Positions 29,284-35,788 of a DNA stretch of 64,000 bases are shown piece by piece. The DNA is from Shewanella electrica. GTDB lineage: Bacteria > Pseudomonadota > Gammaproteobacteria > Enterobacterales > Shewanellaceae. The translations under genes were made by a program, and so were the position numbers. The stretch's first letter is position 1. Every line of letters starts with the position of its first letter. The DNA lies in the NCBI RefSeq assembly GCF_022321485.1, contig NZ_JAKOGG010000004.1, forward strand, positions 50,156 through 114,155. The letters run 5' to 3'. The notes under the pieces were generated by a model. It was not told where the DNA came from and made no database searches. It saw only the letters and a program-made list of their open reading frames with translations.

Positions 29284-30894
29284 TCAATAATTTGCAGTGT
29301 TTAATGCTTGCAGTTGCTCCCAACGAATCCCGAATTTTGCCAGATACTTTTGCAACCGTGATGAATCATTGCTGCTGGCTTTTTGGGTGCGGCTCACATC
29401 AAACAACGCCCGTCCAGCCGCAGCGAGTGATGGCTGCTGCATACAGATGCTCAACACATAGTCGAGCTGATGGCGATCGAATTGATCGAGCTGCGCATCT
29501 GCTTCAGCGGTGAGTAACTGCTTACTTAAACTCTCAATTGATGTGCTGCTTTGCTGCCAGTCTTGCGTCAGCCGCGCAGTTTCATCCTGCACATCTTGCT
29601 CGGCAATGCGTGATGAATCCGCCAGCGTACACAGCCGCGTAATCGATGACGCTAAGTCGCGAAAGTTGCCGCGCCACTGCGAGCTGGGCGCGTGGGCAAA
29701 ACGCAAATACTGCTGTTTGGCTTCTTTATTAAAGCGGATGCGATTGCCTTGCTCGCGGCTAAAACGCTCCAGTTCAAAGTCGATATTGGCGTCGATATCT
29801 TCGCGACGATCTTTCAGCCCCGGCAGTTGATAACTCCACAGATTGATCCGCGCCAGCAAATCTTCACGAAATTCGCCGTTGGCAACGCTGGCGCGCAGAT
29901 CGCGATTGGTGCCAGCAATCAGTTGAAAGTTACTCTGCACCTCTTTGTCGCTGCCGACTGGATGGAAGGCACGGTTTTCAATGGCGCGCAGTAGCATAGC
30001 TTGTTCTTCTAACCCCAGTTCGCCCACTTCATCGAGAAACAGCAAACCGTTATTGGCGGCGCGCAGGAAACCGTCGCGCGCGCTGGCGGCACCAGTAAAG
30101 GCGCCTTTGGTGTGGCCAAACAGCGCCGCCATGGCGTTTTCACCTTTGAGCGTGGCGCAGTTCACCGTGACTAACTCACCGGTAACCGTGCCGCGGCGCT
30201 TTTTCAGTTGATAGATCCGCTGTGCCAGTTGGCTTTTACCCGCGCCGGTAGGGCCGGTTAACAGAATCGGCGCAGCGGAGCGAATGGCAACCTTTTCAAT
30301 TTGGGCGATCATGCGGTTGAAGTGAGTATTTTGGGTGGCGATGCCACCTTTCAAAAACTCGGTGCCTTGCTCGTGCTCGGCATCAAAACGGGTGGCAAGT
30401 TGATCGTATTTGGACAGATCTAAATCGATGATCTGTGCATGACCGCGCGCTTTATCTTCTGGTTGGCGGCTGGGTGATGTTTGGATTAAACGACCAGGGA
30501 AGTGGCGACTCTCGGTCAGCAAAAAACTACAGATCTGCGCCACGTGGGTGCCGGTGGTGATGTGGAACAGATAATCGTTGTTATCAATATCAAACTGAAA
30601 CTTGGCACAAAAATCATATAACTTGGCGTACACCTCGCCAAAATCCCACGGGTCGTCCAACTCCAACGTATGCAACTGCACTTGGGTTTCTGGTGACACG
30701 GTTTCGATATCCACTGCCACATTATTTGCTAAGCGCCAACTCTGTTGGTTGTGCAGCAAGTGCAGCTCATCAATCACTAACTGCTCTTGGCTCACCAAGC
30801 TGATATTTGGCCGCCAGCGCTCCCAACGTTTTTTGCCTTTACCGACCGAGTCGAGCTGCGTTCCGAGCAAACTAATTGCAATAGTCTTTCTCAT
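29284..30894 (-). CDS. rtcR: Sigma-54-dependent transcriptional activator RtcR (CARF sensor domain + AAA+ domain)
   Basis: Collinear with E. coli RtcR from MRKTIAISLLGT...RWERWRPNISL (CARF) through GPTGAGKSQLAQRIY, GHTKGAFTGA and GAF..WRGNFRDL to the C-terminal HTH. It is divergent from the rtcBA operon. Confidence 0.9.
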   Translation of the reverse strand: MRKTIAISLLGTQLDSVGKGKKRWERWRPNISLVSQEQLVIDELHLLHNQQSWRLANNVAVDIETVSPETQVQLHTLELDDPWDFGEVYAKLYDFCAKFQFDIDNNDYLFHITTGTHVAQICSFLLTESRHFPGRLIQTSPSRQPEDKARGHAQIIDLDLSKYDQLATRFDAEHEQGTEFLKGGIATQNTHFNRMIAQIEKVAIRSAAPILLTGPTGAGKSQLAQRIYQLKKRRGTVTGELVTVNCATLKGENAMAALFGHTKGAFTGAASARDGFLRAANNGLLFLDEVGELGLEEQAMLLRAIENRAFHPVGSDKEVQSNFQLIAGTNRDLRASVANGEFREDLLARINLWSYQLPGLKDRREDIDANIDFELERFSREQGNRIRFNKEAKQQYLRFAHAPSSQWRGNFRDLASSITRLCTLADSSRIAEQDVQDETARLTQDWQQSSTSIESLSKQLLTAEADAQLDQFDRHQLDYVLSICMQQPSLAAAGRALFDVSRTQKASSNDSSRLQKYLAKFGIRWEQLQALNTANY

Positions 30895-31044
30895 TGGTCT
30901 ATCCAAATAGATATTTAACTATCTTAATTTCATCATTTTATCGTTTATGTGGCAATGGGGAATCTATGGTTATTTGTCTTGGTTAAATTTATTGTCATTT
31001 AAAATCAATTGCTTGAGATTTTGTTTTACTGTTTATGCAGAAGT

Positions 31045-31060
31045 TGGCACGTGGGTTGTA
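31045..31060 (+). promoter_or_regulatory. Sigma-54 (-24/-12) promoter for the rtc operon
   Basis: TGGCACG-tggg-TTGTA matches TGGCACG-N4-TTGCW at 14 of 15 specified positions. It lies 130 bp upstream of the divergent rtcR start and upstream of the leader RNAs and the SPFH-rtcB-rtcA genes. Confidence 0.7.
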
Positions 31061-31128
31061 ATAGTTAAGTCGTGTTTCGATACAACACGCTGGTGCGGCG
31101 GGCAATGCCTGAGCCGTATGCCAGAGAG

Positions 31129-33863: not shown

Positions 33864-34909
33864 AGCAAAAAATGATAACCATTGATGGCGCCCAAGGTGA
33901 GGGCGGCGGGCAGGTATTGCGTTCAGCACTAACGATTGCGCTACTTACCGGTACTCCGCTGGAGGTAATCAATATTCGTGCGGGCCGTCATCAGCCGGGA
34001 CTATTGCGGCAACATTTAGCTTGTGTGCGAGCGGCGCAGGCGATCAGCAACGGCCACTGTGAAGGGGCCGCACTTGGCTCGCAGCATATTCGCTTTACGC
34101 CAAAGGCAGTTAATGCAGGCAACTATCAATTTGCCATTGGCTCAGCGGGCAGTACTGTGCTGGTGTGCCAGACCATTCTGCTGCCGTTGGCGTTAGCGAA
34201 TGGCGTCTCGCAGGTGCAATTTGCTGGTGGCACCCATAATGGTTGGTCGCCGTCGCTGACTTTTTTTGAGCGCAGCTTTTTACCGCTGCTGCGTACCATG
34301 GGGGTACAAGCTGAGGTAACGGTAGAGCAGCTGGGCTTTCATCCCGCAGGCGGTGGTCGCTGGCAATTGACCATTAAGCCTTGTCAGCAGTTACAACCGT
34401 TGAGGTTAACTGAGGGAATTGCTGAACGAGCCGCGCGGATGGAATATTGCGCCATTGATGTGATTCAGGCCGAGCTGCCTGCGTCGATTGTTCAGCGTGA
34501 AATTGCCACCACTCAGCAGCAACTTAACTGGGCTGATGCCGCGACCAATGTGCAGCGTGTTACCGCAGCATGCCCCGGGAATAGCTTGCACTTGTCGGTG
34601 GCATGTGCGGATTATCACTTGATGGTAGAGCAGATTGGTGAGCGTCGCTTGAGCGCTGAAACATTAGCGAAAACTACTGCCACACAGCTACAGGCCTTGA
34701 TAAAGGCCAATGTGGCGGTGGATGAGTATCTTGCCGATCAGCTGCTATTGCCTATCGCCATTGCTGGTGAAGGCAGTTTTACTACGGTGCAACCGAGTTT
34801 GCATACTCAAACCAATATCGCGGTCATTGCGCAAATGCTGGGTAAACAATTTTCCGTGACAGAGTTTGGTGACAACCGCTGGCGAATCGCATTGGCAGCT
34901 GATGGCTAA
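33860..34909 (+). CDS. rtcA: RNA 3'-terminal phosphate cyclase
   Basis: [31 protein letters not shown]...IRAGR..PGL is collinear with E. coli RtcA. The ATGA overlap with the rtcB stop codon is typical coupling. Confidence 0.93.
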   Translation: [349 protein letters not shown]

Positions 34910-34975
34910 CTGAAAGCGTTATCTCTTAAGCACTGTTGTGAGAGCCTTGATGTTTGTGTTGTAAGGAGTGACAGA

Positions 34976-35788
34976 ATGAAACAAGTAGTTGATGCACGAT
35001 TGCAGCAGGCAATCGATGAGTCGGTGAGGCAAGAGATATTACGCCGTATCGCGGCGGCAGAGCGGGAGCATGATGTCACCGTGTTGTATGCGGTCGAGTC
35101 CGGTAGTCGCGCTTGGGGATTTGCCTCTCCCAACAGCGATTATGATGTGCGTTTTATCTACGCCCATAAGCCGGACTGGTACTTGAGTGTCGATTTAGAG
35201 GCTAAGCGCGATGTAATCGAGTACCCAATAGTGGATGAAATCGATATCAACGGTTGGGATGTGCGCAAGGCGTTGCAGTTATTCAACAAATCCAATCCTG
35301 CCATAGTGGAATGGTTACAGTCGCCACTGGTGTATGGTGATGACGGTTATTTTGCGGCGCAGCTACGGCCGTTGTTAGCCAGCGGTTATTCGCTTAATAA
35401 AGGGGTTTATCACTACCTGCATATGGCGAAAACCAACTATCGCGGTTACCTCAAAGGCAGCGAAGTGCGGCTGAAAAAGTACTTTTATGTGCTGCGGCCA
35501 TTGTTAGCCATCCGTTGGTTGCTGGCGCATCGTACCGTGGCACCGATTGAGTTTGCTCGATTGTTGACCATGCTGACTGAGGAAGCCGTGCGTACTGAAG
35601 TCGATAAACTGTTGGCGGTTAAAATGCGCAGCGATGAGCTACAAACTGGCCCGCAAGTGCAAGTGCTGAACCAGTTTATCGAAACTGAATTGGCGCGTTA
35701 TGAGCAGTTCACCCCTCTTGATAATAACAATCGGCTGGATATGACGGAGTTGAATCGTATCCTGCGTGGATCGATGGCTGTTCGTTGA
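34976..35788 (+). CDS. Pol-beta-superfamily nucleotidyltransferase, last gene of the rtc cluster
   Basis: Minimal NTase motif VESGSRAWGFASPNSDYDVRFIY (G-S-x10-D-x-D) near the N-terminus, followed by a helical substrate-binding-type region. It is co-oriented with rtcA across a 66-bp gap. Confidence 0.6.
   Translation: MKQVVDARLQQAIDESVRQEILRRIAAAEREHDVTVLYAVESGSRAWGFASPNSDYDVRFIYAHKPDWYLSVDLEAKRDVIEYPIVDEIDINGWDVRKALQLFNKSNPAIVEWLQSPLVYGDDGYFAAQLRPLLASGYSLNKGVYHYLHMAKTNYRGYLKGSEVRLKKYFYVLRPLLAIRWLLAHRTVAPIEFARLLTMLTEEAVRTEVDKLLAVKMRSDELQTGPQVQVLNQFIETELARYEQFTPLDNNNRLDMTELNRILRGSMAVR

Follow-up and report, generated by a model that had tools for sequence, protein, structure and literature searches.

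The RNA ligase RtcB seals 3'-phosphate or 2',3'-cyclic phosphate ends to 5'-hydroxyl ends, and RtcA makes the cyclic ends. SPFH proteins are otherwise viewed as membrane organisers; the abstract of the 2016 paper by Burroughs and Aravind reportedly speaks of SPFH/Band-7 modules with "a novel tRNA-like molecule". According to the summary of that paper (NAR 2016, 44:8525) given by Wang et al. (bioRxiv 10.1101/312249), a Band-7 protein and an RNA termed b7a-tRNA are found next to RtcB, and the two are proposed there as functional analogues of Ro60/Rsr and the YrlA Y RNA. The rtc locus of Pseudomonas aeruginosa also contains an SPFH protein, PaFlo8/PA14_60630 (PMC13086221). Here, we discuss a locus of Shewanella electrica in which an SPFH gene, rtcB, rtcA and the nucleotidyltransferase gene rlaP follow a leader with tRNA-like modules and a divergent rtcR gene. 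It occupies positions 29284-35788 of a 64,000-nucleotide stretch of contig NZ_JAKOGG010000004.1 (assembly GCF_022321485.1), which we call the window and to which all coordinates belong unless a related locus is named.

We conclude, with a probability of about 0.85, that the Shewanella chromosome carries here a complete RNA-repair operon under RtcR/sigma-54 control, which belongs to the known Band-7 and b7a-tRNA class and the mechanism of which we in part infer. To judge from the summary cited above, this combination was described by comparative genomics in 2016, and the locus is a good example of it, not a discovery. An original prediction, made from the window itself, had called a soluble SPFH protein unusual in an RNA ligase operon; this view does not survive the 2016 description (via 10.1101/312249) or the P. 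aeruginosa case (PMC13086221). Its broader idea of a composite, RtcR-controlled RNA damage-response unit is supported by the recurrent linkage of SPFH, rtcB and rlaP presented below. What we can contribute are small additions: a tRNA-like module without an anticodon arm and with an encoded ACCA tail, a hairpin with a conserved loop, N-terminal repeats in the SPFH protein, and a leader shown to be conserved.

An open reading frame (ORF) scan and profile searches agree on the five genes that had been predicted, with the same boundaries, and all five family assignments lie well above their cut-offs. On the minus strand, divergent from the operon, rtcR (29284-30906) encodes a sigma-54 enhancer-binding activator. 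The plus strand carries the SPFH/Band-7 ("slipin") gene of 384 codons (31424-32578; Band_7, PF01145), rtcB for the 3'-phosphate/5'-hydroxyl RNA ligase (32601-33863; PF01139), rtcA for the RNA 3'-terminal phosphate cyclase (33848-34909; PF01137) and rlaP for a Pol-beta nucleotidyltransferase (34976-35788; PF10127). These four genes are co-oriented and as tightly spaced as had been supposed, with 22 nt between SPFH and rtcB, an overlap of rtcB with rtcA, and 66 nt between rtcA and rlaP. No terminator-like site was found on the plus strand between the operon genes. Because of this co-orientation, tight spacing and lack of a terminator, the leader and all four genes are probably carried by a single transcript.

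The enzymes of the operon are readily assigned. RtcB matches PF01139 at 1.6e-124 and RtcB chains of the PDB with values down to about 1e-31; its gene might start at GTG 32601, preceded at 5 nt by AGGAG, or at ATG 32637. For RtcA, the matches are PF01137 at 3.6e-73, NCBIfam NF003246 at 382 bits (cut-off 352) and PDB entry 1QMH, an RNA 3'-terminal phosphate cyclase, at 2.1e-75. The two possible rtcA starts are GTG 33848 and ATG 33860, and the latter is the likely one, giving an ATGA stop/start overlap with rtcB at 33860-33863. The product of the last gene matches PF10127 (1.3e-90, 303.9 bits against a cut-off of 23) over residues 18-264, nearly its whole length, and its GS-x10-DxD motif is seen directly as GSRAWGFASPNSDYD. 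PF10127 is the RlaP or "RNA ligase-associating Pol-beta" family, described by Pfam as "RNA repair pathway DNA polymerase beta family". The motif had been read correctly in the original prediction and the epithet "minimal" had not: the gene encodes a full member of a named family, one whose defining trait is association with RNA ligases, and not an anonymous minimal enzyme. A sequence search of the PDB gave no solved structure matching RlaP. Pseudomonas RlaP adds one or two nucleoside monophosphates to RNA 3'-hydroxyl ends, favours damaged RNAs (Carruthers et al., PMC12776372, 2025), and can restore the aminoacylation of over-trimmed, repaired tRNA (PMC12776372). The 3'-nucleotide addition proposed earlier for this gene agrees with that published biochemistry.

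RtcR has the architecture of a sigma-54 activator, with a CARF-type N-terminal domain, a sigma-54 AAA+ domain and a helix-turn-helix. Its assignment rests on PF06956 (1.5e-81, residues 6-188) and Sigma54_activat, PF00158 (3.6e-49), in profile searches, on NCBIfam NF038308 (783 bits against a cut-off of 650) and on the PADLOC model RtcR--CARF_AAA_HTH (1.7e-250). On the plus strand, at 31045-31060, lies TGGCACgtgggTTGTa, a -24/-12 promoter-like element of the sigma-54 type with one mismatch to TGGCAC-N5-TTGCW, the -12 dinucleotide being GT and not GC. Across the window, this pattern occurs 44 times, no more often than the 53.7 occurrences expected from shuffles. Since the enrichment was not significant on its own, positional conservation was used in its place: in a positional scan of about 30 related loci, which counted elements with 8-11 of the 11 specified bases, a comparable element stands about 140-170 bp from the rtcR start in most loci, whichever gene follows. 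It was not found at that distance in two of them (L034 and L048), and it is identical in the sister Shewanella locus, L001. The weight that we give to the element comes from this conserved position relative to rtcR, not from window enrichment. The element, like the cloverleaf in the leader behind it, had been noticed earlier, and its predicted activity would make it the operon promoter, with a transcript start near 31072.

A scan of one genome per species retrieved 54 loci encoding an SPFH relative of 41-93% identity, mostly in marine Gammaproteobacteria of many families, with single hits in Bdellovibrionota and in a metagenome-assembled genome (MAG) labelled Flavobacteriales. The genes within 6 kb of SPFH include rtcB in 37/54 loci, rtcR in 34/54 and rlaP in 18/54, with all four repair genes together in seven. 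The gene order is far from fixed, at least three arrangements being seen: divergent rtcR followed by SPFH-rlaP-rtcB in Aliikangiella, Alteromonas and Endozoicomonas, and divergent rtcR followed by rtcB-rtcA-SPFH in Microbulbifer, Halieaceae and others. The original prediction had asked whether SPFH-RtcB-RtcA-nucleotidyltransferase is a recurrent unit and would have given way had the two outer genes never accompanied rtcB. They do so in several gene orders; as a set the genes recur, and the exact order SPFH-rtcB-rtcA-rlaP is confined to the two Shewanella genomes.

It is also important to note that the tightest partner of the SPFH gene is not a protein gene but the tRNA-like element. Of the 50 loci that offer a full-length SPFH gene together with usable sequence ahead of it, 48 have such an element on the strand of the gene and 170-630 nt upstream, irrespective of whether SPFH comes first in the operon or after rtcA. 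The b7a-tRNA and SPFH gene stand alone as a pair in L013, L015, L016, L017, L040, L041 and L044; in L045, the SPFH gene is alone, with no tRNA-like element detected. Overall, this RNA-protein pair looks like the basic unit. A pair of SPFH ("slipin") and RlaP genes is also present between yjbD and lysC in 1625 of 5426 complete Escherichia coli genomes. The E. coli SPFH protein is 42% identical to that of the window (L055 5466-7950, L056); upstream of the pair there are a sigma-54-like TGGCACGCTTCTCGCA and a lone T-arm-like hairpin, UGGGUUCGAUUCCCA, a zeta-toxin family gene adjoins it, and no RNA feature is annotated there.

The same scan brought up a further association with tRNA genes. Arrays of 6-16 apparently genuine tRNA genes with many anticodons are found in L031 (1121-4279), L039 (1223-4295), L018 (4052-4781) and L024 (3657-4484), in the orientation of the operon. 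They surround rtcB(-rtcA) and the b7a-tRNA/SPFH pair or lie in the space between the two, and they belong to MAGs of Cellvibrionaceae and Spongiibacteraceae and to Candidatus Endobugula sertula. Such arrays may provide spare tRNAs in conjunction with repair. In L024, L031, L038 and L039, a second, distant RtcB paralogue of 27-28% identity is encoded downstream.

The cloverleaf itself (31181-31253, plus strand), the b7a-tRNA of the literature, is called by Rfam (tRNA, 51.5 bits, E 4.6e-9), by ARAGORN ("Asn GTT") and by our covariance model R1 (75.2 bits), which was built from 46 homologous elements. In their alignment, 95.5% of the cells are paired and 18 of the 21 pairs show changes on both sides, a result that none of 500 shuffles and no slid register comes close to. 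The aligned elements were chosen by ARAGORN, which demands a cloverleaf, so that part of the pairing percentage follows from the selection itself; this does not apply to the compensatory changes or to the slid-partner controls. Invariant throughout are the D-stem and the bases that make the contacts of the tRNA L-shape, namely U8, A14, G18, G53, T54, T55, C56, A58 and C61.

The anticodon arm behaves quite differently. U33 is near-universal in tRNAs; among the 46 elements, the anticodon loop has a length other than 7 nt in 13, and only 24 of the 33 seven-nucleotide loops have U33. The "anticodons" include CAT, GTT, TTT, AAT and many more, and that of the window (GTT) is replaced by TTT in L001, the SPFH protein of which is 93% identical. 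In the window, acceptor pairs 2 and 3 of 7 do not match, A occupies position 33, and the element is not followed by CCA. A genuine decoding tRNA-Asn was rejected on the strength of these acceptor mismatches, A33, the missing CCA, the TTT of L001 and the 13/46 loops of irregular length. Because the body is conserved while the anticodon loop varies freely, such behaviour is, on the sequences compared, that of a tRNA mimic recognised by its body and not of a decoder.

The mimic sits in a structured leader of 352 nt (31072-31423, plus strand). None of 100 shuffles folds as well as the leader (minimum free energy z-score -2.39), and it is 90.1% identical to that of L001, against 80.7% for the whole 29300-34909 block; by this comparison, the leader is more conserved than the coding DNA behind it. 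Immediately upstream of the cloverleaf, at 31129-31182 of the same strand, the covariance model revealed a second tRNA-like module without an anticodon arm, consisting of a 7-bp acceptor stem, a D-like hairpin, a T-arm (GGGUUCGAGUCCC) and an encoded ACCA 3' tail. Model R1 matches it at 31129-31179 with 21.1 bits (E about 9e-4 in the 64-kb window), the anticodon arm being deleted. Its minimum free energy fold has the acceptor, hairpin and T-arm, with a z-score of only -1.58, non-significant on its own. The support for the module therefore comes from the covariance-model match and from 98% identity to its counterpart in L001, not from folding energy. Tandem full cloverleaves precede the SPFH gene in L002 (5642-5787), L003 (5638-5785), L008 (5646-5788) and L044 (5596-5738), which belong to Aliikangiella and a Thiothrix MAG; in the window, the arm-less module takes the place of the upstream copy.

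Comparison of loci further revealed a hairpin at 31313-31345 (plus strand), about 100 nt upstream of the SPFH start, with the conserved loop GCAAaCAGGAcGCUCCC. The loop motif, GCAAGCAGGA(T/A)GCTYCC, is common to the window, L001, L002, L003 and L008, Aliikangiella loci among them, and the stems vary in sequence across loci yet remain complementary. Rfam at E <= 1 over 28800-36700 returned tRNA only, and the same was true of five related loci and the E. coli locus; a Y RNA or another known RNA family as the identity of the leader was rejected on this ground. Some relatives have more RNA-like sequence than the window. In L011-L031, L036, L037, L039 and L053, 280-490 nt separate the b7a-tRNA from the SPFH start and hold an extra conserved RNA-like sequence that the window lacks. 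Downstream of the b7a-tRNA, it has a hairpin and a T-arm-like GGCGAAAGCC-tGGGGTTCGAATCCCC, together with an 8-bp long-range complement (GAGGCCCA and, about 220-250 nt further on, TGGGCCTC) around a conserved CCGTTGATGATGGGTT. Rfam found only tRNA in the b7a-tRNA-to-SPFH sequence of these loci, and the extra sequence may represent a larger RNA structure, some 300 nt long, to which the mimic is joined.

The protein partner of the mimic belongs to the SPFH superfamily (Band_7, PF01145, 1e-23, residues 157-328), and NCBI holds a "slipin family protein" of Shewanella sp. C32 that is 100% identical to it. It has no transmembrane helix, as had been claimed before: its best 19-residue Kyte-Doolittle window scores 0.99, against 2.87 for the control transmembrane segment of the neighbouring chemoreceptor, and the median best window across 51 SPFH homologues is 1.19. 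Neither a transmembrane helix nor a hydrophobic hairpin was found as an anchor at the N-terminus, which consists of two beta repeats. An AlphaFold model (pLDDT, the predicted local distance difference test, 80.9 overall and 91.4 for residues 1-200) has three five-stranded beta modules (2-46, 71-115 and 153-196), followed by the SPFH alpha/beta domain and by two long C-terminal helices (302-343 and 346-365), so that an SPFH domain with a helical region is predicted. Between modules 1 and 2, identity is 29% over 58 residues; between module 2 and module 3, the start of the SPFH domain, it is 28% over 46. The N-terminus is thus formed by two extra copies of the SPFH N-terminal beta sub-domain. Homologues from Pseudoalteromonas and Vibrio quintilis (P0004-P0011, alignment A2) are about 150 residues longer (534-542 aa) and carry extra N-terminal repeat copies; the repeat number therefore varies within the family.

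With Foldseek, the model matched human stomatin (2.8e-13) as well as HflK, prohibitin and QmcA, and its fold with the long C-terminal helices would resemble the cage-forming stomatin, HflK/C and prohibitin. The whole-chain model also matched the major vault protein (MVP) in the structure search. The high-confidence N-terminal model alone gave no MVP match, and Pfam found no Vault repeat (PF01505) in the protein; vault homology was rejected for these reasons and is kept as an analogy only. No partner NfeD gene was found: the neighbours in the operon are RtcB, RtcA, RlaP and RtcR, with no other ORF of at least 60 aa with coding support. Matches to the SPFH protein in a plasmid collection were all in very large replicons (0.3–4.8 Mb), the 4.8-Mb "plasmid" record being presumably a chromosome. 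A search for phage homologues of the SPFH protein found none, and PADLOC, searched for catalogued anti-phage defence systems, matched RtcR only; on these two results, a catalogued defence system was rejected.

Taken together, these parts allow a scenario to be drawn, in which what RtcR binds and what RtcB, RtcA and RlaP do is carried over from homologues. The CARF domain of RtcR is bound by nicked tRNAs and by 5' halves with 2',3'-cyclic phosphate, which leads to oligomerisation (Chen & Wolin, PMC10159003); by homology with this Salmonella case, the Shewanella RtcR would sense damaged tRNA through its CARF-type domain. It would then activate the sigma-54 promoter at about 31045, to go by the motif and its conserved position, and one transcript would deliver two tRNA-like modules in the leader, followed by SPFH, rtcB, rtcA and rlaP. 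RtcB and RtcA would perform the sealing and cyclisation typical of their families, and RlaP would add one or two nucleotides to trimmed 3' ends, as shown for the Pseudomonas enzymes. The final step is the most conjectural: the tRNA mimics would probably be excised from the leader by tRNA-processing enzymes and might be bound by an oligomeric, cytosolic SPFH ring or cage. This complex could serve as a scaffold or cofactor for RtcB and RlaP, much like the role proposed for Ro60-Y RNA in Salmonella.

It is tempting to go one step further and to suppose that the anchor-less SPFH protein forms a closed, membrane-free cytosolic cage with the two tRNA mimics, which recruits or encloses RtcB and RlaP, the variable anticodon loop tuning it to particular damaged tRNAs or toxins. 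We consider this extension unlikely as it stands, and mention it for its consequences. If true, the SPFH cage would amount to a small ribonucleoprotein compartment in which bacteria repair tRNA; its architecture would find an analogue in vaults (MVP and vault RNA), and its role one in Ro60-Y RNA.

Several points weigh against the reading of the locus as a Band-7 and b7a-tRNA repair operon. By the account of Wang et al., the b7a-tRNA was without experimental validation as of 2018 (10.1101/312249). Deletion of PaFlo8 gave no phenotype in assays of growth, virulence, motility, biofilm and oxidative stress, a set that did not extend to RNA-damaging toxins (PMC13086221). The product of RlaP ends in a 3'-hydroxyl and RtcB requires a 3'-phosphate, a gap in the pathway flagged by the authors themselves (PMC12776372). 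In about eight of our loci, neither rtcB, rtcR nor rlaP lies within 6 kb and the surroundings are unrelated housekeeping genes; likewise, the SPFH and RlaP pair of E. coli is not next to rtcBA. Since the SPFH/mimic pair can stand alone and the E. coli pair lies away from rtcBA, the SPFH protein and mimic need not act only with RtcB. Finally, model R1 gives 74 bits, a score equal to that of the mimic, to a genuine tRNA-Lys(CTT) at 7338-7413, which has a perfect acceptor stem. R1 cannot separate mimics from real tRNAs, and the term "mimic" therefore rests on context and on the loop irregularities.

The mimic could also be thought of as a bait or amplifier. Incoming anticodon nucleases would cut its loop, and the nicked RNA, with its 2',3'-cyclic phosphate, would bind the CARF domain of RtcR and boost induction, or else soak up toxin, with SPFH storing or presenting it. 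Such a role would suit anticodon loops that are free in sequence and length on a conserved tRNA body; nicked tRNAs with cyclic phosphate do activate RtcR (PMC10159003), and a mimic encoded downstream of a putative RtcR-dependent promoter would make positive feedback possible. However, a decoy should copy the loop of its real target, and many loops are 4-6 nt long or lack U33, while an invariant D-arm would be better explained by a dedicated partner protein than by mimicry directed at toxins. We regard the bait as rather improbable, and would say much the same of the tRNA-like modules being cis-acting processing signals, at which cleavage by RNase P or RNase Z trims the leader or, in other species, splits the rtcBA from the SPFH messages and so sets mRNA stability or translation. 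The elements are always on the same strand and directly upstream of SPFH, as a 5' leader in the window and between cistrons elsewhere; the bases that the tRNA L-shape requires, and with it recognition by RNase P, do not vary, and further conserved leader structure lies between mimic and start codon. Still, a signal alone needs no invariant D-arm, covarying anticodon stem or tandem copies, and the element stays with the SPFH gene in stand-alone loci that have no operon to process. Processing in cis is, moreover, compatible with the SPFH-RNA scaffold and does not exclude it.

Among these three rivals, only the last, coincidental adjacency, is effectively excluded. It would hold that 31181-31253 is an ordinary tRNA-Asn gene and that the SPFH protein scaffolds membrane microdomains without any link to RNA repair, in line with the tRNA calls of ARAGORN and Rfam and with database labels such as "slipin family protein" or "regulator of protease activity HflC". 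It is contradicted by the irregularities of the element (A33, 2/7 acceptor pairs mismatched, no CCA, a different anticodon in the closest relative) and by an SPFH protein with neither a transmembrane segment nor a hydrophobic hairpin; the linkage to the tRNA-like element (48/50) and to rtcB (37/54) across rearranged gene orders cannot be chance. The locus is flanked on the left by a chemoreceptor gene and DUF3624, both common to the window and L001. A strong terminator-like hairpin of 12 bp (28894-28922) lies 3' of the chemoreceptor gene, and a conserved ORF of 82 aa (28957-29205; DUF3624, PF12292, 2.3e-36) is placed between this hairpin and the 3' end of rtcR.

On the right-hand side, the AT-rich stretch that the original prediction had taken for the island boundary is real (GC 0.29-0.33 at 36000-36600), and its role as a boundary was rejected. 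In L001, the flank of rlaP runs straight on into the counterpart of window position 39203. Because it is absent from L001, the closest relative, the segment 35741-39202 is a strain-specific indel of 3.4 kb, and the AT-rich stretch is a part of it. The segment also holds the genes of a secreted S8 subtilase (36567-38678; 703 aa, with a proprotein-convertase P-domain and a Big_9/cadherin-like N-terminus) and of an ORF_2_N protein (38697-39152; 151 aa). Given a GC content of about 0.29 at its start, it was possibly acquired horizontally.

The interest of the locus lies in an RNA-repair operon that joins well-understood enzymes to accessories of putative role, the soluble SPFH protein and the tRNA mimic, which are its two most conserved ones. 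A cytosolic, RNA-linked member would broaden the view of SPFH proteins, and there is a parallel to two eukaryotic ribonucleoproteins of unclear function, Ro60-Y RNA and vaults. As a test case, the locus is compact and predicted to be inducible through sigma-54; it offers two tRNA-like modules of different kinds, in a leader that has changed less than the genes behind it. When set beside the membrane SPFH cages (stomatin, HflK/C, prohibitin and QmcA) and MVP, the Shewanella protein differs by the absence of a membrane anchor and of an NfeD partner and by its two extra copies of the SPFH N-terminal beta sub-domain.

Among rtc operons, that of E. coli (rtcR/rtcBA) shares the divergent rtcR, the RtcB ligase and an RtcA close to 1QMH, and its sigma-54 promoter has a putative counterpart here; unlike it, the Shewanella locus has three extra parts, namely the SPFH gene, rlaP and the tRNA-like leader. 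The rsr-yrlBA-rtcBA operon of Salmonella Typhimurium has RtcR/sigma-54 control, as predicted for ours, and likewise rtcB and rtcA, and also the gene of a non-enzymatic protein and tRNA-like noncoding RNA genes ahead of the ligase genes. Here, SPFH replaces TROVE/Ro60 (no TROVE domain was matched among the five proteins), a full cloverleaf stands in place of a YrlA-type Y RNA, and rlaP is added. The rtc locus of P. aeruginosa (rtcR, PaFlo8, rtcB, rlaP and rtcA) resembles ours in the embedded SPFH gene (PMC13086221) and in an RlaP within the operon (PMC12776372), with the difference that its rlaP lies between rtcB and rtcA, whereas in Shewanella it comes last. Closest of all is the Band-7/b7a-tRNA/RtcB/RlaP system: as far as the published summary conveys it, the component set is the same, RlaP being frequent and not obligatory, and nothing essential differs, the Shewanella locus adding the arm-less ACCA module and the order SPFH-rtcB-rtcA-rlaP.

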